From sequence record NZ_CP124633.1: a DNA stretch of 64,000 bases, one strand, 5' to 3'. The notes below the pieces were generated by a model. That model worked only from the letters and a program-made list of their open reading frames with translations. It was not told where the DNA came from and made no database searches. This document shows, piece after piece, positions 15,743-43,965 of this stretch (position 1 is the stretch's first letter; each line of letters opens with the position of its first letter). This DNA comes from a plasmid. Made by a program: the position numbers and the translations under genes.

Positions 15743-15977
15743 GAGAGGTCTCCGAATACGCAGGCCTCTCCCGCGGGGATGAGGTCCCCGCGTGGGTGGG
15801 TAGGATGCACTCCATCACTTGCGTGATGCGACCGCGCTGCCGAGTGCTGTGGCGGTCTTGGGTGGGTTAGCGCTTGCGCGCCGGAGCCTTAAACCCTGGC
15901 TCCTTGGGAGGCGCTGTCAACGACAGCGAGCCAATTCGAATTCGGGGGCTGGCGGGATTTCCCGCCGGCCGGATTGC

Positions 15978-16685
15978 TCAATCGTCATAAAGCGGCAGGC
16001 CCTTGAGCGTGGGCGCGAATGGATCAAGTACCAGGAGCCGGATGTCTGCTTGTCCCGCGAGGTGAAGCAGATCGACCAGGTGTTCGTCGAGGCCGAAGTC
16101 AAGCTGTTCTTGTCGAAGAGCGGCTGCGGTCATCTCCAGGATCTCCAGACACTCATCCGTCCAAGGGGTGTTGTGCAAGCGAAAGCCCACGGCACCGTGC
16201 TCGTTACACCAGAAGAGCGATACCAACACCGAGGGCAAGCGGATTGGCATCTTGGTCGAGAACCTTTCGTAGAGGCTATTCCACGCCCTGATGGGTAGAT
16301 GTGTTTTTCTGATCTCCCAGCAGCGGTTATAACCGCCGCCGAACGAAAGGTATCGAACGACACTCTCGGCTTCGGTCAGTGAGTATTGATCTCCGATAAG
16401 CTTTTTTCTGCCGTCCTGCTCACCGTAGATGCTGTAAAGTACGTTTCTCACTATTCCTTGGTGAGGGCATTTTTCAACTCTTTCATCGTCTAAGTCTTGG
16501 GTTACCACGGCGAAATCGCCATTGAAGTAGCACTGCTCGCACTGAAAATATTCGTCTGGGAGGTGCTGCTGGGTTTCATGCAGTGCGCGGTAGCACGGTA
16601 GATTGTCGCCTTCGTCAGTGATCTGCAGGTTTCGCTCGATGCGGAAACTCTCATAGCCGCGAATAAACGGATTGAGTTGAGTCAT
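15978..16685 (-). CDS. Cys-rich hypothetical protein (CYRALHE...CEQCYFNG...KCPHQG), lower-GC cargo
   Basis: 235-aa ORF, GGAGAT SD, local drop in GC. Confidence 0.55.
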   Translation of the reverse strand: MTQLNPFIRGYESFRIERNLQITDEGDNLPCYRALHETQQHLPDEYFQCEQCYFNGDFAVVTQDLDDERVEKCPHQGIVRNVLYSIYGEQDGRKKLIGDQYSLTEAESVVRYLSFGGGYNRCWEIRKTHLPIRAWNSLYERFSTKMPIRLPSVLVSLFWCNEHGAVGFRLHNTPWTDECLEILEMTAAALRQEQLDFGLDEHLVDLLHLAGQADIRLLVLDPFAPTLKGLPLYDD

Positions 16686-16785
16686 GGGGTATCTCCGGTT
16701 GCCGGGAAGCCCATGCCCTTGGAGGCTATGGACCTCCAGGTGAGTAGGGGCGCCGAAGCGCCCAGGTGATGTCGAGTTGTTGTAG

Positions 16786-17064
16786 TTAACGCGATAGGTG
16801 TTCTTCTTTACGCCGAGCCTTCTGGTATCGCTCTACCAGGCCATAGTATTGAAGTACCGGTGATGTGCTCGAGTCGCAACCATGCTCACAGTCGGCCTGC
16901 GCCAAAGCTTCGATTGCATCTTGAATTACATAGAGCTCGATACTGAGTCCTGCATCGCCAAACTCATCAACCAAGCCTTTGCACAGAATGTACTCGAACT
17001 TGCTTTGTGCGGCTTGTACTCCGATGTTGAGTAGAGCTGGGAGCCTTTCTGGGTATGTGTTCAT
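16786..17064 (-). CDS. hypothetical protein (92 aa)
   Basis: ORF, start at MNTYPERL. Confidence 0.4.
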   Translation of the reverse strand: MNTYPERLPALLNIGVQAAQSKFEYILCKGLVDEFGDAGLSIELYVIQDAIEALAQADCEHGCDSSTSPVLQYYGLVERYQKARRKEEHLSR

Positions 17065-17168
17065 GGTGAGTTCCAATTCGTAATCAAATCGGAGAGGTCA
17101 CCTCCCAACAGGGGTGATGACCCCGTCTGGGTTGAATTAGAAGATGAACATGGGCAAAAGGGTAAAGC

Positions 17169-17366
17169 TTAATATTCCCGTTGCGTCCAAGTACCGTTGT
17201 CTAATGCCTGTTGAGCAAGATCGCGGGAGGGGTAATATTCAACCGACTCGCGCGAGGCTGGTCCTTCTTCATCAAGGGTGCCGATATAGAAGCCGGCGTT
17301 GGACATAAGAACCTGCAGCGGCAGTTCGAGACGAAGATGGGCGAGTGCCCGCTTTCCGTATTGCAT
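17169..17366 (-). CDS. hypothetical small protein (65 aa)
   Basis: start MQYGKRAL with AAGGAGA SD. Confidence 0.45.
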   Translation of the reverse strand: MQYGKRALAHLRLELPLQVLMSNAGFYIGTLDEEGPASRESVEYYPSRDLAQQALDNGTWTQREY

Positions 17367-18215: not shown

Positions 18216-18480
18216 GATGGTTCTCCAGTTTCGTAAGCGAAAGCGGAGAAACACCTTGCCCGTCAGGGAAAAGTATTCCCCGCATGGGTCGGTATTGGGA
18301 GGTAAATCTGAGGGAGAGGGCTTCCATCAACCTGTGGTTGATTGATCGCGCTACCGGAAGCTGGTGCGATCTTGGGTTCGATCTACACGGAAGTCCGTGT
18401 CGTAGTCTTTCAGATCATGACTACTGGGGGAGGGTTGCCGACAACGTCAGCAGCTCACGGGGTAAAGGATGGGCAGGGGA
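18216..18480 (-). repeat. ~265-bp leader element, copy A (homologous to 19317..19570)
   Basis: shared blocks gcggagaaacac, attccccgcatgggtcgg, gctaccggaagct, ggtcttgggttcgatc, gttgccgacaacgtcagcag. Confidence 0.5.
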
Positions 18481-19316: not shown

Positions 19317-19570
19317 GGTGTTTCTCCTGCAGGTTGAGGGTGCGGAGAAAACACTGGCCCTGGCGGGGAAGTGGATTCCCCGCTGGGTTGCGGAAGGGAG
19401 CTTCTATCGACCGAGGCCGACCGACCGTGCTACCAGAAGCTATACGGTCTTGGGTTGGATCAACACGCTGGGCTGTGCTGCAGCACTTCGGATCCGAGCT
19501 GCATGGGGCATGTCGCTGACAACGTCAGCAGATCACGCGCTCATCATCGAAGCGGGGGGCGAAAGTGTCA
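19317..19570 (-). repeat. ~255-bp leader element, copy B (homologous to 18216..18480)
   Basis: see copy A. Confidence 0.5.
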
Positions 19571-20235
19571 AGGTCAAGCAGGAGGGGGAGCGGATGCAGG
19601 ATGCAGCGGGCGGAGAGCGAGGGCGGAAGAGCGCGGCTGGTAGAAACCCTGTCAAAGGTTTCCCCAGCCGTGTCTGGAAGGGGAGTCAAGTGAGCCACCT
19701 GTGGTTGAATCGTCGATCCCTGGGCATTGATCGTCTCGATCCCATCACCCGGCCATTATCGTGGCTTGGCCAGCAAACAGTAGGCACGCATCCGCGTACA
19801 AAGGGAGCCCTGCGTATCACCGGCGGGCCACCGGCAGGGAGAAGGATCCCGATGGGTAGCCTGATGGTCCTGGAGCAGGAGCATCAGGCTACCCATGGAG
19901 AGGGAAAAGGAGGGGCCGTAACACCAGTACGACCCTTAAATCGAGGAAACACCGAACCTCTTGAGAACCCTATGTGCCTTTAAACTCGCTCGACACGAGT
20001 TGACGGCTGCATGACAAGCAAAAGAACAGGGAGACACAGGGAGAATTCTCAACCAGATCCGCACGCCCCACCCGGTGTTGTAGCGTGCTTACGGTTTGGC
20101 GATGAGGCGAACCTGCATCACCAGGGCGCTACTGATGACCGTCAGTAGCCAGCGGGGTGAAATCAAAGTTGATGGCATTATGTGTTCAGAAGGCCGGTTT
20201 ATCAAGCAGCGCCGGGGTTTACTGGCTTCTGGAGG

Positions 20236-20673
20236 TTATTTGACCGCGACCACCGCGCCCTCGGGGATGGGAGCAGGGAGCGCAATGGCAGTGGCTCCGA
20301 GGCGGCGTGTGACTAACTGGCCGTTGCGCCTGACGCCAACTAGGTCGGATTCCGTACCGGCATCCACGGCTGCCGCCAGCCCTGCCGGCGGCGAGGCGAT
20401 GAAGGCGTAGCTGGTGCCGGCGGCGATGTAGCCCTGAAGCCGCACTGGCTTGCGGAACCAGGCCGGTAGACCAAGAGCGGAGTCCGCCGGCGAACCGCTG
20501 AAACCGGGGTTGGCGTGTGCGTACTCCGCCAGCCTGGCGCGGTAGAGCAGCAAGCTCCTGGCCAGGGTGTCGACCTCGGCCAGTTCGGCGCTCGAGGTCG
20601 CGTGGTCGCTTTGTACACTCAGCCAGGTCCCGGTGAGCAGGGCGAGCAATAGGGCAATCCAGAGCAGCGGCAT
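20236..20673 (-). CDS. pilM: type IVb pilus protein PilM
   Basis: last gene of R64/PAPI-1-type pil cluster; N-terminal TM MPLLWIALLLALLTGTWL. Confidence 0.65.
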   Translation of the reverse strand: MPLLWIALLLALLTGTWLSVQSDHATSSAELAEVDTLARSLLLYRARLAEYAHANPGFSGSPADSALGLPAWFRKPVRLQGYIAAGTSYAFIASPPAGLAAAVDAGTESDLVGVRRNGQLVTRRLGATAIALPAPIPEGAVVAVK

Positions 20674-37206: not shown

Positions 37207-39126
37207 CTATAGCCCGCGCGGGTTGTCGAAGTCAGGTTGGCCGTTCTTGGTGGGATAGCTGACTTTGCAGCCGGTGGTGCGATAGCCGCTGCAGCCCCAG
37301 AAGTCGAAGCCGCTCTTGCCGGCTTTCTTGCGGTGGACCAGGGGCAGACCGCACTTGCCGCAGAGGAAGTCACTGGCCGGCGCCGTGGGAGCGCTGGCGG
37401 TAGAGCTTGCTCGCGGGTCGCCCTGTGCGCTGGGATGCGCGCGCAGCGTCTGCAGCTCTGACTGCAGGAGCTGGTAGAACTGCTGGACCACGTTCATGTA
37501 GGTGTCCTCGCTGTTGGCGATCCGGTCCAAGGCGACCTCGAGGTTGCGGGTGAAATCGAGGCTGAGGAAGCTGAAGTTGTGCTCCAGGAGCGCGATGGTG
37601 GCCTCGCCCAGCTCGCCGGGGACCAGGCTTCGCCCCTTCATCTGCACCTGGCCTTTGTCGATGATGTTCTTCACGATCGAGGCGTAGGAGGATGGCCGAC
37701 CAATCCCGCGGCGCTTCATCTCGCCCACCAGGCTGGCATCGGTGAAGCGTTTGGGAGGGGTGGTTTTCTTCTCCAGGACCTCGCCGCTGTAGACCTTGAG
37801 TATCTGGCCTGGCTCCAGCGCCGGGATGGGGCTTGAAGGCGTTTCGTTCTTTTGCTCCTCGGCATCATCGCCCTGCAGCAATTTTCTCCAGCCAGGCACG
37901 TTCAACAGCTTCCCTTTGGCGCCGAAGCGCAGCGGCTTTTTGTCGGGGCCGACGCCCAGGAGGGTGATGGTTCTCACTGCGTACACGGCAGCTTCGATCT
38001 GGCTGGCAAGCGCGCGAACTCGAATGAGCTGGTACAGCGCCTGCTCATCAGCAGTTTCACCGGCGGTAGCGGCCATCCAGTCGGTAGGGGTGATAGCGGG
38101 GTGGCCTTCCTGAGCGTCTTGGTCCGCTTTGAACATTCGCTGTTGCTCTACACACTTCAGCCCCAAGGCTTTGGCGACAGCACGGATATCCGGCATCGAG
38201 TCCTTCGAAATATTGGGGTTGTCCGTTCGGTGGTAAGTGATGAGCCCCTGTTCATACAGCCGCTGGGCGACTTTCATCGTCTTGTCGGGTGACCACTTCA
38301 GTGCATTTCCGGCTGCCATCTGGAGCGAAGAGGAGATGAACGGTGCCGGAGGCGTATCGGTTTCTTCGCCATCAATGCAGGTCTCGACGATCACATTGCG
38401 TATAGCCCCCACCAGTTCTGCGAGTTGACGATCCTGGACATACGGAAATTCCTTGCTGGCAAACGTGGGCACTGGATCCCACTCCGCCTTCCAGGTGCGG
38501 CCGTCGCTGGGCGAAACGAAGGCCAGTTCCACCCCGAAATGCTTGATTGGTGTGAAGGCGCGAATCTCCCGCTCTCGCAGGACCACCAGGTACACAGCGA
38601 CGGACTGCACGCGCCCGGCGGTGGTTGGCCTGCCCATCACGCGCCGCAACTCTGGCGTGACCAGATATCCCACCAGGCGATCGATGACGCGACGGCATTC
38701 CTGCGAGGCGACCTTCGGGAGGTCCAGGCGACGCGGCGAGCTGAGTTCGGCGCTGATGCATGACTTGGTGATCTCTTTGAAGGCAACGCGCTTGTAGTTC
38801 TTGATCCCGGCAGCCTGGAGTATGTGCCAGCCGATGCTTTCGCCTTCCCGATCCGGGTCGGATGCGACGTAGACTTCCACGGCTTTCTGCCGCAGCTCCT
38901 GCAGCCGTGCGACGATTTTTTCCTTGCCCGAAAGGATCTGGTAGTGGGGTTTGAAATCCTGGCCTACGCCGACGGTGAGCATCTGCGGATCCTGGCCGTG
39001 AACGGGTAGGTCTCTGATGTGACCGGCAGTCGCTTCGACCTGCCAGGTCACGTCGGGACGAATGGAGGGGAGAAGGGACCGCAGCTTTTTCAGCTTGCCC
39101 GGGGCTTCAATGATTACAAGGTGCAT
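37207..39126 (-). CDS. topB: DNA topoisomerase III (type IA) with C-terminal zinc ribbon
   Basis: Toprim N-terminus MHLVIIEAPGK, CGKCG...C...C tail. Confidence 0.85.
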   Translation of the reverse strand: MHLVIIEAPGKLKKLRSLLPSIRPDVTWQVEATAGHIRDLPVHGQDPQMLTVGVGQDFKPHYQILSGKEKIVARLQELRQKAVEVYVASDPDREGESIGWHILQAAGIKNYKRVAFKEITKSCISAELSSPRRLDLPKVASQECRRVIDRLVGYLVTPELRRVMGRPTTAGRVQSVAVYLVVLREREIRAFTPIKHFGVELAFVSPSDGRTWKAEWDPVPTFASKEFPYVQDRQLAELVGAIRNVIVETCIDGEETDTPPAPFISSSLQMAAGNALKWSPDKTMKVAQRLYEQGLITYHRTDNPNISKDSMPDIRAVAKALGLKCVEQQRMFKADQDAQEGHPAITPTDWMAATAGETADEQALYQLIRVRALASQIEAAVYAVRTITLLGVGPDKKPLRFGAKGKLLNVPGWRKLLQGDDAEEQKNETPSSPIPALEPGQILKVYSGEVLEKKTTPPKRFTDASLVGEMKRRGIGRPSSYASIVKNIIDKGQVQMKGRSLVPGELGEATIALLEHNFSFLSLDFTRNLEVALDRIANSEDTYMNVVQQFYQLLQSELQTLRAHPSAQGDPRASSTASAPTAPASDFLCGKCGLPLVHRKKAGKSGFDFWGCSGYRTTGCKVSYPTKNGQPDFDNPRGL

Positions 39127-39241
39127 CGTCGGAGTCTCTCGGAACAGTCGGTCGAACTGTCGCGATTAGTGAGTGGGCCAACAATGAGAAATGAACGGTG
39201 CGTTGTTGCAGTTTTCGGGAGGTGCTGTAGAGCGGGATCGA

Positions 39242-39439
39242 TCAGAAATCGAGCTGCTGTTGCTGCTCCTGGGCAAACCCTTTCAACCAGGACGCCCGCA
39301 TCGCAGGATGACTGTAGGGGCAGTCGAACACCCGTAGCCCTTTCCGCGCGGCCTCAGCACCAATAGCCCGTACAGTCCGGTGGGGATCGTTGAAGTGTCG
39401 TCTGTCCAGCTTGTCGGTACCGGTCGCTTTCTTTGACAC
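39242..39439 (-). CDS. crpP: CrpP-like Rmf-fold small protein (65 aa; GTG start), family originally reported as ciprofloxacin-modifying but later disputed
   Basis: (M)SKKATGTDKLDRRHFNDPHRTVRAIGAEAARKGLRVFDCPYSHPAMRASWLKGFAQEQQQQLDF; GAGGTG SD before GTG; ORF track's upstream ATG lacks SD. Confidence 0.55.
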   Translation of the reverse strand: MSKKATGTDKLDRRHFNDPHRTVRAIGAEAARKGLRVFDCPYSHPAMRASWLKGFAQEQQQQLDF

Positions 39440-39465
39440 ACTGCACCTCGTACTGGTCGAGATTT

Positions 39466-39932
39466 CCGAATCGGAAGTTCTTGCCACCAGCAACTTCACG
39501 AACGGGCGGCCAAAATTAAGGATGCTGGTTCATCAGCTGTTTCCGGTATAACTGATCATGTTGGTTGCTCCAGTCGCTGGAATGCTTGTCGATGTTGCGG
39601 GCGGCGAAGAATGGTTCTAGCCACCTGCAACTTCACGAGTGGGCGCGGTAAATTAAGACCGGCGTTTCACCGTCGCTTCGGCAATGCGCTGAGCCACTCG
39701 GATGAAGGTCGCTCGATCTTCTTCCTCCATAAGCGCCATGCACTTCAGTACGGAGATCTCGTCGGCGCTGAGGGGAGGCCTGGTCAACGGCTCTGGGCAA
39801 TGTGAACCTGCTTGGTCATCTTTCCTGTTCATGGCGGATTTCCTGTCGGGCGAGTCTTTGTAGAGGCTGCGGGCGGCGAAGAGTAGTGCTTGCCACCCGC
39901 AGCTTCACGAATGGGCGGCCAAAAATTAAGCC
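39466..39932. repeat. three 55-65-bp direct repeats (39466..39521, 39597..39660, 39867..39932) sharing core GCCACCnGCAaCTTCACGAnnGGGCGgcnAAAATTAAG
   Basis: read directly; each follows a gene end on the minus strand (ssb, 59-aa ORF) or precedes crpP. Confidence 0.6.
39653..39832 (-). CDS. hypothetical small protein (59 aa) between repeats, tentative
   Basis: own translation MNRKDDQAGSHCPEPLTRPPLSADEISVLKCMALMEEEDRATFIRVAQRIAEATVKRRS. Confidence 0.3.
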   Translation of the reverse strand: MNRKDDQAGSHCPEPLTRPPLSADEISVLKCMALMEEEDRATFIRVAQRIAEATVKRRS

Positions 39933-39937
39933 ACCTG

Positions 39938-40426
39938 TTACATGGGGATGTCGTCGTCGAAGGCGCTGTCGTAGTCCTGCTGCGAGCGCGCATCCTGCTG
40001 AGTAGGTTGCGGCGGCACCTGCCGAGTCTGCTGATGCTGGGTCGATTGGCCATTGGTCGACGGCAACAGGGTGACCTCGGCCAGGCGATGCGGAAGGATG
40101 GAAATGCGCGAGGCTTCGACCTTCAGCGCCTGGACTTCTTCGCCTGACTCTTTGTCGGGCCAGCGGTCCATGATCGCCCGGCCTTCGACCTTGACGCGCA
40201 TCCCTTTCGCGAACAGTTCGGCGAAACGCTGGGCATCCTGATGCCACCACTCGACGCTGCACCAGAAGCCGCCGCGATCCTTGTAGCCACCTTGGCCATC
40301 GGGAATCGAGTTGTCGAACATCACGTTCAGTCGCAGCAACTGCCGCGGGGGATTGTTGCCGTTCGGGAAGCTGCGGTGCTCCGGCGCCGAGCCGATGTTG
40401 CCTTCCCAGAAGACGGGGGTAGCCAT
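39938..40426 (-). CDS. ssb: single-stranded DNA-binding protein
   Basis: OB-fold N-domain, Gln-rich linker, acidic tail DDDIPM. Confidence 0.85.
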   Translation of the reverse strand: MATPVFWEGNIGSAPEHRSFPNGNNPPRQLLRLNVMFDNSIPDGQGGYKDRGGFWCSVEWWHQDAQRFAELFAKGMRVKVEGRAIMDRWPDKESGEEVQALKVEASRISILPHRLAEVTLLPSTNGQSTQHQQTRQVPPQPTQQDARSQQDYDSAFDDDIPM

Positions 40427-40455
40427 GATGAATCTCCAGTCGGTTGAGTCGGGGG

Positions 40456-41286
40456 TTAGTGGGTGGAGCGTGGTTTGAAGGGGGAGCGAGTGGCGCGGCT
40501 GGCCACGTACCCGAGCAGTTCACGGGTTTGCCGAGCCGTTGCAGCCAAGGTGTTGGCCATGTGCTCCTTGAACACTTCGCTGGCCAGCTTTTCGACGCCG
40601 CTGTCGTAAAGGGAGTTGAACAGCAGCTCCGCGTCATGAGCGGAGCGCAGCAAGCCGTAGAGCAGGTCCTTGGCGATGGAGGAGCCGGCCACGCTGGGCA
40701 AGGACTTGGCGGCCACACCTTCACCGATGATCTGCCCCTGGAGGAAGTTCAGGGCCTGCTTGATCTGCTCGGGATTCGCCGCGTCCAAGGACTCGACGGC
40801 CAGGTAGTTGCATACGACCTGTTCTGTCCTGGGTCGGGCCGGCTCGCCGAGGGTGTGGTCGCGCATCAGGTCGAGGGTCTTGATAGCGAACTGGAGCAGG
40901 TGGTTGTGGCTGAGGATCTCGGGTTGCTCGATGATCGCCTGTTCCATCTTGTTGAAGGCGTTGATGTAAGCGACCTTCCAGTGCATAGCCTCCTTGCCAG
41001 TGAACCCCATGCAGAGAAGGGTGAAGCCGTCGCGAGTCATGCGCACGTATGGCTCTGGCCTGTTGTTCGCTCCTGTGCGGGAACACTCCTCAAAATTGAG
41101 GAGTGCAAAATCCTCGGGACATTCCAAGTTTTTGATATCCCGTAACACGTTGTCGTGCCTCTTCCGAAAATGCTTGGCGACGTCGAGGCTGGTCGTGGTG
41201 GGCTTGCCGCCGATGATCTCGACGCTGACCTCGGTGGAGGGCTGGGCTTTGGTGTTGGAAACGGTCTTGCTGCTGATGTTGCTCAT
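40456..41286 (-). CDS. Rha-family phage-type regulatory protein
   Basis: start MSNISSK with GGAGAGA SD; TTSLDVAKHFRKRHDNVLRDIKNL. Confidence 0.6.
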   Translation of the reverse strand: MSNISSKTVSNTKAQPSTEVSVEIIGGKPTTTSLDVAKHFRKRHDNVLRDIKNLECPEDFALLNFEECSRTGANNRPEPYVRMTRDGFTLLCMGFTGKEAMHWKVAYINAFNKMEQAIIEQPEILSHNHLLQFAIKTLDLMRDHTLGEPARPRTEQVVCNYLAVESLDAANPEQIKQALNFLQGQIIGEGVAAKSLPSVAGSSIAKDLLYGLLRSAHDAELLFNSLYDSGVEKLASEVFKEHMANTLAATARQTRELLGYVASRATRSPFKPRSTH

Positions 41287-43004: not shown

Positions 43005-43965
43005 GCCGCCACCGGCGCCGAAGTCAGTTCCTGGTGGAGTGGTTCCAGTGGAACCACCCAACTCGCCGCCGGCGCCGAAGTCAGTTCCTGGTGAAGTGGT
43101 TCCAGTGGAACCACCCAACTCGCCGTCGGCGCCGAAGTCAGTTCCTAGTGGAGTGGTTCCAGTGGAACCACCCAACTCGCCGCCGGCGCCGAAGTCAGTT
43201 CCTGGTGAAGTGGTGCCAGTGGCACCACCCAGCTCGTCGACGGCGCCGAGGCCTGGTCCTGGCGGAGTGTTGCCAGTGGCAACACCCAGCTCGCCGTCGG
43301 CGCCGAAGTCAGTTCCTGGTGAAGTGGTTCCAGTGGAACCACCCAACTCGCCACCGGCGCGGAGGTCGGTTCCTGGTGAAGTGGTGCCAGTGGCACCACC
43401 CAGCTCGTCGACGGCGCCGAGGCCTGGTCCTGGCGGAGTGTTGCCAGTGGCAACACCCAGCTCGTCGACGGCGCCGAGGCCTGGTCCTGGCGGAGTGTTG
43501 CCAGTGGCAACACCCAGCTCGCCGCCGGCGCTGGGGTCGGTCCCTGGTGGGGTGATTCCAGTGGAACCACCCAACTCGCCGTCGGCGCCGAAGTCAGTTC
43601 CTGGTGGAGTGGTTCCAGTGGAACCACCCAACTCGCCGCCGGCGCCGAAGTCAGTTCCTGGTGGAGTGGTTCCAGTGGAACCACCCAACTCGCCACCGGC
43701 GCGGAGGTCGGTTCCTGGTGAAGTGGTGCCAGTGGCACCACCCAGCTCGTCGACGGCGCCGAGGCCTGGTCCTGGCGGAGTGTTGCCAGTGGCACCACCC
43801 AGCTCGCCGCCGGCGCTGGGGTCGGTCCCTGGTGGGGTGATTCCAGTGGAATCACCCAACTCCTCGACGGCGCCGAGGTCGATCCTTGGCAGAGTGTTTC
43901 CACTGGAAACACCCAGTTCGCCACCGGTGCCGAGGTCAGGACCTGGCAGAGTGATGCGGGCCGCA
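43005..43965. repeat. ~17 tandem copies of a 57-bp repeat (unit ...GAAGTCAGTTCCTGGTGGAGTGGTTCCAGTGGAACCACCCAACTCGCCGCCGGCGCC); matches the sixteen-57-bp-repeat putative oriV described for pKLC102-type elements
   Basis: period counted directly; two frames on each strand stay open across it. Confidence 0.85.

Follow-up and report, generated by a model that had tools for sequence, protein, structure and literature searches.

The stretch of DNA analysed here, called the window throughout, comprises 64,000 nucleotides (nt) of a plasmid (sequence record NZ_CP124633.1), and our subject is an array of short direct repeats between its genes ssb and crpP. Positions 39100-40450 were identical to the Pseudomonas aeruginosa plasmid pUM505 (NC_016138.1; 100% over 1351 nt), a plasmid of 123 kb that carries a pKLC102-like integrative conjugative element (ICE) with a MOBH relaxase and an MPF_G mating system. 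Every gene here lies on the minus strand: a PFL_4669-family gene, a DUF3158 gene, a gene for a Rha-family regulator, ssb, orf59, crpP and a type IA topoisomerase gene (Table 1). An initial annotation of the window had reported three direct repeats at 39466, 39597 and 39867, which we call R1, R2 and R3. Its coordinates hold, as do its observations that R3 follows ssb, that R2 overlaps the stop of an open reading frame (ORF) of 59 aa and that R1 precedes a gene of 65 aa.

We found a single repeat family at the locus, with three 40-nt direct copies (39476-39515, 39613-39652 and 39885-39924) that are 78-90% identical and spaced 137 and 272 nt apart. The repeat length had been given as 55-65 bp. 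The similarity common to all three copies is shorter than that, at ~40-55 nt, and a longer common unit exists for R2 and R3 only, which share 77 nt at 78% identity and run on for ~35 nt beyond the common part, an extension that pairs with the first part of the unit as a hairpin. The core GCCACCNGCARCTTCACGANNGGGCG, searched on both strands, matched exactly three places in the 64 kb even when up to 3 mismatches were allowed; 0.01 matches are expected by chance, and three were reached in 0 of 100 shuffles. With a weight matrix of 46 columns, made from the units of relatives, R1-R3 scored 52-60 bits, the best other site in the window 8.6 bits and the best site in the 59 kb of the plasmid outside the window 6.2 bits, so that R1-R3 are the sole copies in 123 kb. 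Read on the gene-sense (minus) strand, a unit opens with an AT block, CTTAATTT(T), which is followed by a GC box of 8-9 nt (GGCCGCCC), by TCGTGAAG and then by YTGCNGGTGGCAAGMAC; the pattern past TCGTGAAG is yt.CtGG.GgCAAGgAC, then ..TCG. The AT-rich patch of each unit is the only one in otherwise GC-rich DNA. In R3 the AT block reads CTTAATTTTT (39930-39921), TCGTGAAG occupies 39910-39903, and a CAAGCAC box and the 3' arm of a hairpin follow; in R2 the TAA within CTTAATTT is the stop codon of orf59. Inside ssb, at 40359-40376 (+), we noticed 18 nt that copy part of the repeat core in inverted orientation and are complementary to R3 at 16 of 18 positions. This match is probably due to chance because its nucleotides are not conserved in other lineages.

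We compared 22 loci with ssb and crpP, from at least seven Pseudomonas species and metagenomes. The repeats were present in all 22, which share the gene order ssb-crpP-topB: each locus held one to five units, all of them inside the ssb-crpP interval. The first unit started 4-14 nt past the ssb stop in 19 loci, and all 49 distinct units in ICE loci had the gene-sense orientation, none being antisense. Gene content between ssb and crpP had been suspected to vary among pKLC102-like elements; it does, and the number of units varies along with it. Among P. aeruginosa plasmids and ICEs the interval measured 156 nt with one unit in pKLC102, 227 nt with two units in pY89, 538 nt with two units flanking an Xre-type helix-turn-helix gene in p2014S05-249-1, and 499 nt with three units plus orf59 in pUM505. 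P. paraeruginosa and three metagenome contigs had 386 nt, with two units plus orf59. Distant ICEs, whose SSB is 60-67% identical to that of pUM505, carried 2-5 units in intervals of 660-1340 nt; they came from P. monteilii, P. huaxiensis, P. ulcerans, P. putida, P. bharatica, Pseudomonas sp. MN1F, P. veronii and several metagenome contigs, those of the P. monteilii/P. putida type being covered over +/- 4 kb only. The slots between units held an Xre-type regulator, orf59, orf128 or nothing, and the units fell into several paralogous types (a to e), each retained across species.

Outside this setting the units were missing. We found none in three of three ICEclc-like loci that have ssb and a topoisomerase gene and lack crpP (two from Ralstonia, one from P. 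veronii), and none on three unrelated plasmids with crpP-family genes. Viral and metagenome collections were scanned for the pattern TCGTGAAGNNNCNGNNNNCAAGRAC: no true copy of the unit was present among the 19 matching viral loci, and the metagenome matches listed were mostly chance single matches. Among those listed, the loci above 36 bits with the full matrix were ten with relatives of DUF3158, ssb, orf59, crpP or the topoisomerase gene; two others, L098 (34.2 bits) and L084 (25.5 bits), were without such neighbourhood genes. We conclude that the units form a family of ~55 bases, gene-oriented and intergenic, confined to the ssb-crpP interval in Pseudomonas conjugative elements of the pKLC102/PAPI-1 type. 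The papers open to searching contain no account of the repeats, nor of a transcription start or small RNA in PA14_59150-59180, and by that measure the repeat family is previously undescribed.

We then asked what is conserved in a unit. Seventeen units less than 90% identical to each other shared near-invariant blocks at fixed spacing: A.TTt, CC, TCGTGAAG, tt.CtGG.GgCAAGgAC and TCG, the last ~31 nt from the start of TCGTGAAG. Between species, the sequence separating orthologous units diverges and the blocks are unchanged. An RNA fold of the repeat, raised in the initial annotation, was borne out for two copies only: relative to shuffles, the sense-strand RNA of R3 (z = -3.69) and R2 (z = -3.12) folded better, R1 did not (z = -0.76), and RNAalifold over 16 units returned 0 consensus pairs. 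Most units, especially the non-first ones, folded no better than shuffles. The R3 hairpin has 12-15 bp, GCUGCGGGUGGC ... GCCGCCCGCAGC, with its arms at 39892-39906 and 39863-39877 (inverted repeat I3, 15 nt, 87% complementary). The R2 hairpin, GUUGCAGGUGGC/GCCGCCCGCAAC, differs from it by one C-G to U-A change plus one A.C mismatch, and P. aeruginosa R2 looks like a duplicate of R3. Hairpins were confined to R3, R2 and the first unit after ssb. Such a first-unit hairpin occurred in three lineages, each with its own stem sequence: GCUGCGGGUGGC/GCCGCCCGCAGC in P. aeruginosa, GAAGCUC..GGUGAC/GUCAC..GAGUUUC in the P. monteilii type and GGUGUUGGGGG/CCCCCAACC in P. veronii.

The 65-aa gene next to R1 had been called crpP-like, and it is crpP itself. 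It is the reference allele because the window is pUM505, and its product was 100% identical to the AMRFinder reference. CrpP scored 115.7 bits with the NCBIfam model CrpP_fam (NF033696; cut-off 55) and 57.8 bits with Rmf_CrpP_fam (cut-off 28); with Pfam RMF it stayed under the cut-off (19.9; cut-off 27.9), and no solved structure is related to it by sequence. Ciprofloxacin-modifying activity has been claimed for CrpP and disputed by later work. On the three unrelated plasmids, pMBUI4 (L020), P. fragi pAd12 (L021) and P. antarctica pP27494_2 (L022), crpP-family genes lie among ArdC, DUF3560, entry-exclusion, SprT-like and StbABC genes. The ArdC/DUF3560/entry-exclusion context on these other plasmids suggests that CrpP may have an establishment-type role, and it would suit an Rmf-like factor better than an enzyme of resistance.

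The gene ahead of R2, orf59, had no match in Pfam or NCBIfam. BLASTP of its product against the Xre protein returned nothing, and a Smith-Waterman comparison of the two gave a score of 64, against a shuffle mean of 21.6 +/- 3.8, that was reached by 0 of 3000 shuffles. Judged by this alignment, orf59 is clearly paralogous to the Xre-type regulator over the C-terminal half of that protein and has no helix-turn-helix part; it could be a partner or an antagonist of that regulator. We take orf59 to be evolving as a coding sequence because it differs from the P. paraeruginosa copy by 8 synonymous and 5 non-synonymous codon differences. The Xre gene itself (L003, 1917-2270; annotated ORF 103 aa) sits, in other ICEs, in the slot that orf59 holds here, and its ORF probably starts 14 codons earlier than annotated, at MIGNRLREERLRLE. 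A trace of this gene is present in pUM505: the leader and the ATGATC start of an eight-codon ORF after R2 align with the Xre gene that is intact in p2014S05-249-1. The palindrome TTCCGAATCGGAA is kept in p2014S05-249-1 and, with one central change, in pY89; it is possibly an operator, for example for the Xre regulator encoded just upstream in some relatives.

Table 1. Positions of the repeat units, genes and further features in the window.
Feature	Position	Strand	Remarks
ssb, ICE-type	39938..40426	-	Stop 8 nt before R3 start
R3, first unit after ssb	39863..39932	-	56 bits
orf59 (59 aa, TAA stop)	39653..39832	-	Real small gene
R2	39569..39660	-	52 bits; 78% identical to R3 over 77 nt
Eight-codon ORF MISYTGNS (plus stop) after R2	39533..39559	-	Remnant of the 5' end of an Xre-type regulator gene
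R1	39477..39522	-	59 bits, top-scoring copy; without 3' hairpin arm
Perfect 13-bp palindrome TTCCGAATCGGAA	39464..39476		Between R1 and the crpP ribosome-binding site; read from sequence
crpP (65 aa, GTG start, GAGG ribosome-binding site)	39242..39439	-	Reference allele
Type IA topoisomerase gene (topA/topB)	37207..39126	-	Downstream limit of the variable slot
radC RNA motif match	19400-19547	-	Rfam scan; three matches, 77-97 bits
radC RNA motif match	18320-18469	-	Rfam scan; as above
radC RNA motif match	15807-15944	-	Rfam scan; as above

The arrays of relatives record how the interval was rearranged. The first unit of pY89 is a hybrid in which the 5' part of R3 is joined to the 3' part and leader of R2, as would be expected if R3 and R2 of an array like that of pUM505 had recombined homologously. 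In pKLC102 (L004, 1699-1853) the Xre gene breaks off after its first codons and runs straight into the crpP start region, and crpP may there be expressed from the leader of the Xre gene. In P. paraeruginosa (L007) the R2 leader continues into the ribosome-binding site of crpP, and the metagenome contig L155 has four units, no credible ORF and a retained orf128 leader. Gene-less modules such as the pUM505 R2 module, with its Xre gene start, and L155, with its orf128 leader, can be shown to be deletion remnants. The end points of deletions were often outside the units.

None of the known elements with which we compared the units accounts for them. Rfam held no family for the units at the gathering score over the whole window, and gave chance-level matches only at E up to 10 over 39100-40500. 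Terminators, one of the options in the initial annotation, find no support: a strong hairpin is present in R2 and R3 only and not in R1, and the R3 and R2 hairpins are followed by CCTCTACAAAG and ACATCGACAAG, with no T run. A terminator scan found only a 5-bp stem at 39672..39660, ahead of the AT block of R2. We also rejected the BisDC-dependent promoter motif for transfer competence in ICEclc, a 27-bp MEME motif described by Sulser et al.: with a position weight matrix from six published ICEclc sites, R1-R3 scored -1.1 to 1.3 and ranked 1441st to 3591st of 127,952 window positions. Both kinds of element are GC-rich and lie upstream of ICE genes, and the broad ICE family and the inrR/DUF3158-ssb neighbourhood are alike (PMC9286271, S3 Fig; PMC12409273). 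However, the ICEclc motif serves many operons across ICEclc, whereas the units occur only between ssb and crpP and are missing from ICEclc-like loci. The site of TprA, a ribbon-helix-helix activator of PAPI-1 (33-bp tprA-BS; PMC8565334, supplementary Table S5), had no match in the window within 3 mismatches. Checked by eye, the consensus sequences of sigma-54, sigma-32, AlgU, PvdS and other extracytoplasmic function (ECF) sigma factors, CRP/Vfr, LexA, AlgR, RsmA (CANGGANG) and repetitive extragenic palindromic (REP) elements fitted some copies only or had the wrong spacing.

We propose that the repeats are promoter/operator-type heads for small accessory genes, recognised as double-stranded DNA. 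Recognition as double-stranded DNA is proposed because the conserved sequence is linear, its spacing is fixed, its orientation is strict and it stands 40-76 nt before the start of each intact small gene. That distance, counted by hand from the end of TCGTGAAG to the start codon, is 70 nt for orf59, 72 for the Xre gene, 54 for crpP (from R1 to its GTG start), 56 for orf128 and 40 for P. veronii crpP. The existence, conservation, orientation, exclusive location and rearrangement pattern of the units were observed directly; that they act on transcription we infer. Regulator-binding elements, also among the options of the initial annotation, are a plausible reading and the best of those it offered, and its interpretation as a whole is partly supported. 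A unit would be a lineage-specific cis-regulatory element of ~55 bp, read by RNA polymerase and an element- or host-encoded factor. One unit stands directly behind ssb and further units head the Xre regulator, orf59, orf128 and crpP, so that like heads would place the small genes of the ssb-topoisomerase slot under one common control. The likeness of the heads would also allow homologous recombination and gene conversion, which together with ordinary deletions would lead to modules being gained, lost and truncated; arrays of one to five units and gene-less remnant modules would be the outcome. The authors of the PAPI-1 array study regard ssb (PA14_59150) and the topoisomerase gene (PA14_59180) as distinct transcription units; TprA/NdpA2 induces both, and the array data list none of the genes in between (PMC8565334).

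Similar sets of look-alike promoters are known from other conjugative elements. One example is R388, whose ssb and ardC promoters are under ArdK. The Reg576 regulon of plasmid p576 resembles the units in that small genes near ssb and anti-restriction genes of a conjugative element each stand behind one conserved, same-orientation sequence, and on p576 four look-alike promoters of establishment genes answer to a single repressor (PMC6294495). Such systems differ in having a short defined operator repeat, mapped starts and a known repressor, whereas the units have no recognisable sigma-70 promoter and some head no gene.

Several results weigh against promoter/operator heads. A sigma-70 consensus scan of 39000-40600 found 0 sites; over 49 units, the sigma-70 registers at +2, -19 and -41 from TCGTGAAG stood ~3 sd over the local mean with log-odds that were still negative, and neither the sigma-54 nor the ECF consensus fitted the units. 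In some arrays units follow each other at 108-137 nt and no gene intervenes. The motif turns up in no other promoter region of the 123-kb plasmid, hence no regulon is visible, and no regulator co-occurs with the motif but crpP itself, which on other plasmids is found without it. We therefore hold the proposal tentatively, at a little under an even chance, because neither a recognisable promoter consensus nor a regulator backs it.

What the hairpins suggest is a different reading, in which the units act as intercistronic signals in a polycistronic RNA running from ssb to the topoisomerase gene. A hairpin could protect the 3' end of the ssb message or attenuate there; the units could also be processing sites, or could bind an RNA-binding protein or small RNA that sets the expression of the small genes downstream. 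The G.U pairs of the hairpins and their G.U to G-C changes fit the sense strand only, and one stem position runs through C-G, U.G and U-A across R3, P. paraeruginosa R2 and pUM505 R2. These sense-only G.U pairs count against recognition as double-stranded DNA, and hint that R3, R2 and the first units, at least, have a role as RNA. An RNA element would also suit the place of the first unit close behind the ssb stop (4-14 nt past it in 19 of 22 loci), the first-unit hairpin kept in three lineages with differing stems, and the sense orientation of every unit. However, the units have no consensus structure and no Rfam family, most non-first units fold like shuffles, the A.C mismatches make the R2 hairpins look like decaying copies, and the hairpins have no T run behind them. 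Pairing over a long range between the first unit and ssb coding RNA was tried and rejected: its energies were no better than those of shuffles, and it is not conserved, the ssb codons differing in other lineages. Expression data from PAPI-1 point both ways, the induction ratio being lower for the topoisomerase gene (2.29) than for ssb (3.89) in one comparison and not in the other (2.90 and 2.21; PMC8565334). On balance we consider an RNA element, the chief rival of promoter/operator heads, somewhat unlikely.

Three further readings carry less weight. By analogy with leading regions, the units might be single-strand DNA signals on the transferred or rolling-circle strand, either ssi-type priming sites or single-strand promoters for early expression after entry. 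The leading regions of F-like and I1 plasmids have Frpo/ssi repeats beside ssb, psiB and ardA, and like the units these are one-orientation direct repeats upstream of genes in an ssb region. Where hairpins form among the units, they do favour one strand, CrpP-family genes lie elsewhere among genes typical of establishment or leading regions (ArdC, DUF3560, entry exclusion), and three radC motifs show that structured upstream elements are in use in this ICE. Yet Frpo-type hairpins are hundreds of bases long and rebuild -35/-10 boxes, whereas the units have ~55 nt and stems of at most 15 bp; stems of 12-15 bp are too short for a -35/-10 duplex, most units have no hairpin at all, and the relaxase gene is ~20 kb from the array. 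This makes single-strand signals very unlikely. We give equally little credence to functionless leftovers from segmental duplication of the ssb 3' flank, which would seem conserved through recency. The 77 nt, flank included, that R2 and R3 have in common and the visible decay of modules (the truncated Xre start, the A.C mismatches of R2) are what such leftovers would look like, but the blocks do not vary even in ICEs with an SSB only 60-67% identical and with inter-unit sequence that has diverged beyond alignment, and unit types a to e are each retained across species. Finally, serial cassette insertion at a recurring site had been suggested in the initial annotation, and variable genes between repeats, together with the exact ending of orf59 and of the Xre gene in CTTAATTT of the next unit, would suit the sites of a cassette-capture system such as integron attC, which also lie between variable small genes. 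Unlike attC, the units have no shared imperfect palindrome or other common structure and no adjacent integrase gene, and their boundaries are imprecise. No recombinase gene is annotated adjoining the array (the neighbours are DUF3158, Rha, ssb and the topoisomerase gene), and the motif is found nowhere else, so that no second site for exchange exists. Cassette sites are thus largely refuted and extremely improbable. We favour homologous recombination and decay because the end points of rearrangements often fall outside the units, as in pKLC102 and P. paraeruginosa, and because one unit, that of pY89, is an R3/R2 hybrid with its crossover within shared sequence. The pattern points to an accessory slot that would have been duplicated, converted and eroded by general recombination.

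Two other kinds of repeated element came to light in the window. The radC RNA motif (Rfam RF01754) resembles the units in being repeated upstream of ICE genes; it is itself structured, has another length and sequence, and does not match the ssb-crpP units even at E = 10. Two of its three matches lie upstream of small ICE genes, an STY4534-family replication gene and a hypothetical gene, and the third (81.8 bits) lies inside the annotated istA gene of the IS21-family element ISPst3 (15781-17280) and is not intergenic. The 5' part of two copies (19531.. and 18453..) matches the 27-bp ICEclc transfer competence promoter motif of P81655/P58432, with one difference in 25 positions between the 19531 site and P81655. 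Because of these matches, the MEME motif of P81655/P58432 appears to be part of a radC motif. The copy at 19400-19547 closely follows pilM (20235-20672). A small RNA of PAPI-1, PesA, is described at this position, downstream of pilM2 on the same strand and overlapping the 3' end of the next gene (PMC5493400). Going by position, PesA could be an RNA of the radC motif. Ahead of the PFL_4669-DUF3158-ssb operon, on its upstream side, there is a parS-like palindrome array (43034-43177 and 43262-43461) of three GTGGAGTGGTTCCAGTGGAACCACCCAAC and two GCGGAGTGTTGCCATGGCAACACCCAGC, candidate loading sites for the ParB-family (BisD-like) protein of the ICE, encoded ~3.5 kb away. The ICEclc bisS palindrome was absent from the window.

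Returning to the promoter/operator heads, we can imagine a wider role for them, although we regard it as unlikely. The units would head a self-contained accessory slot whose genes are switched on right after transfer, by one dedicated factor or by single-stranded entry DNA, and the heads would let small genes swap by recombination, in an integron-like manner that is mechanistically different. The swapped genes might possibly encode anti-host or anti-defence proteins, the ribosome-factor-like CrpP included.

These results change the setting in which crpP is seen. The gene is followed around the world as a supposed mobile determinant of fluoroquinolone resistance, and yet its function is disputed. 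It now turns out to stand last in a small array of accessory genes that changes fast, and a conserved unit specific to this ICE lineage heads every one of these genes. The unit arrays account for the length polymorphism of the ssb-crpP interval in clinical isolates. The finding is of specialist interest and demonstrates no new principle. It does provide, in TCGTGAAG and CAAGRAC, a handle on when crpP and its neighbours are expressed, whether in donors, in fresh transconjugants or constitutively, which bears on the purpose of CrpP.

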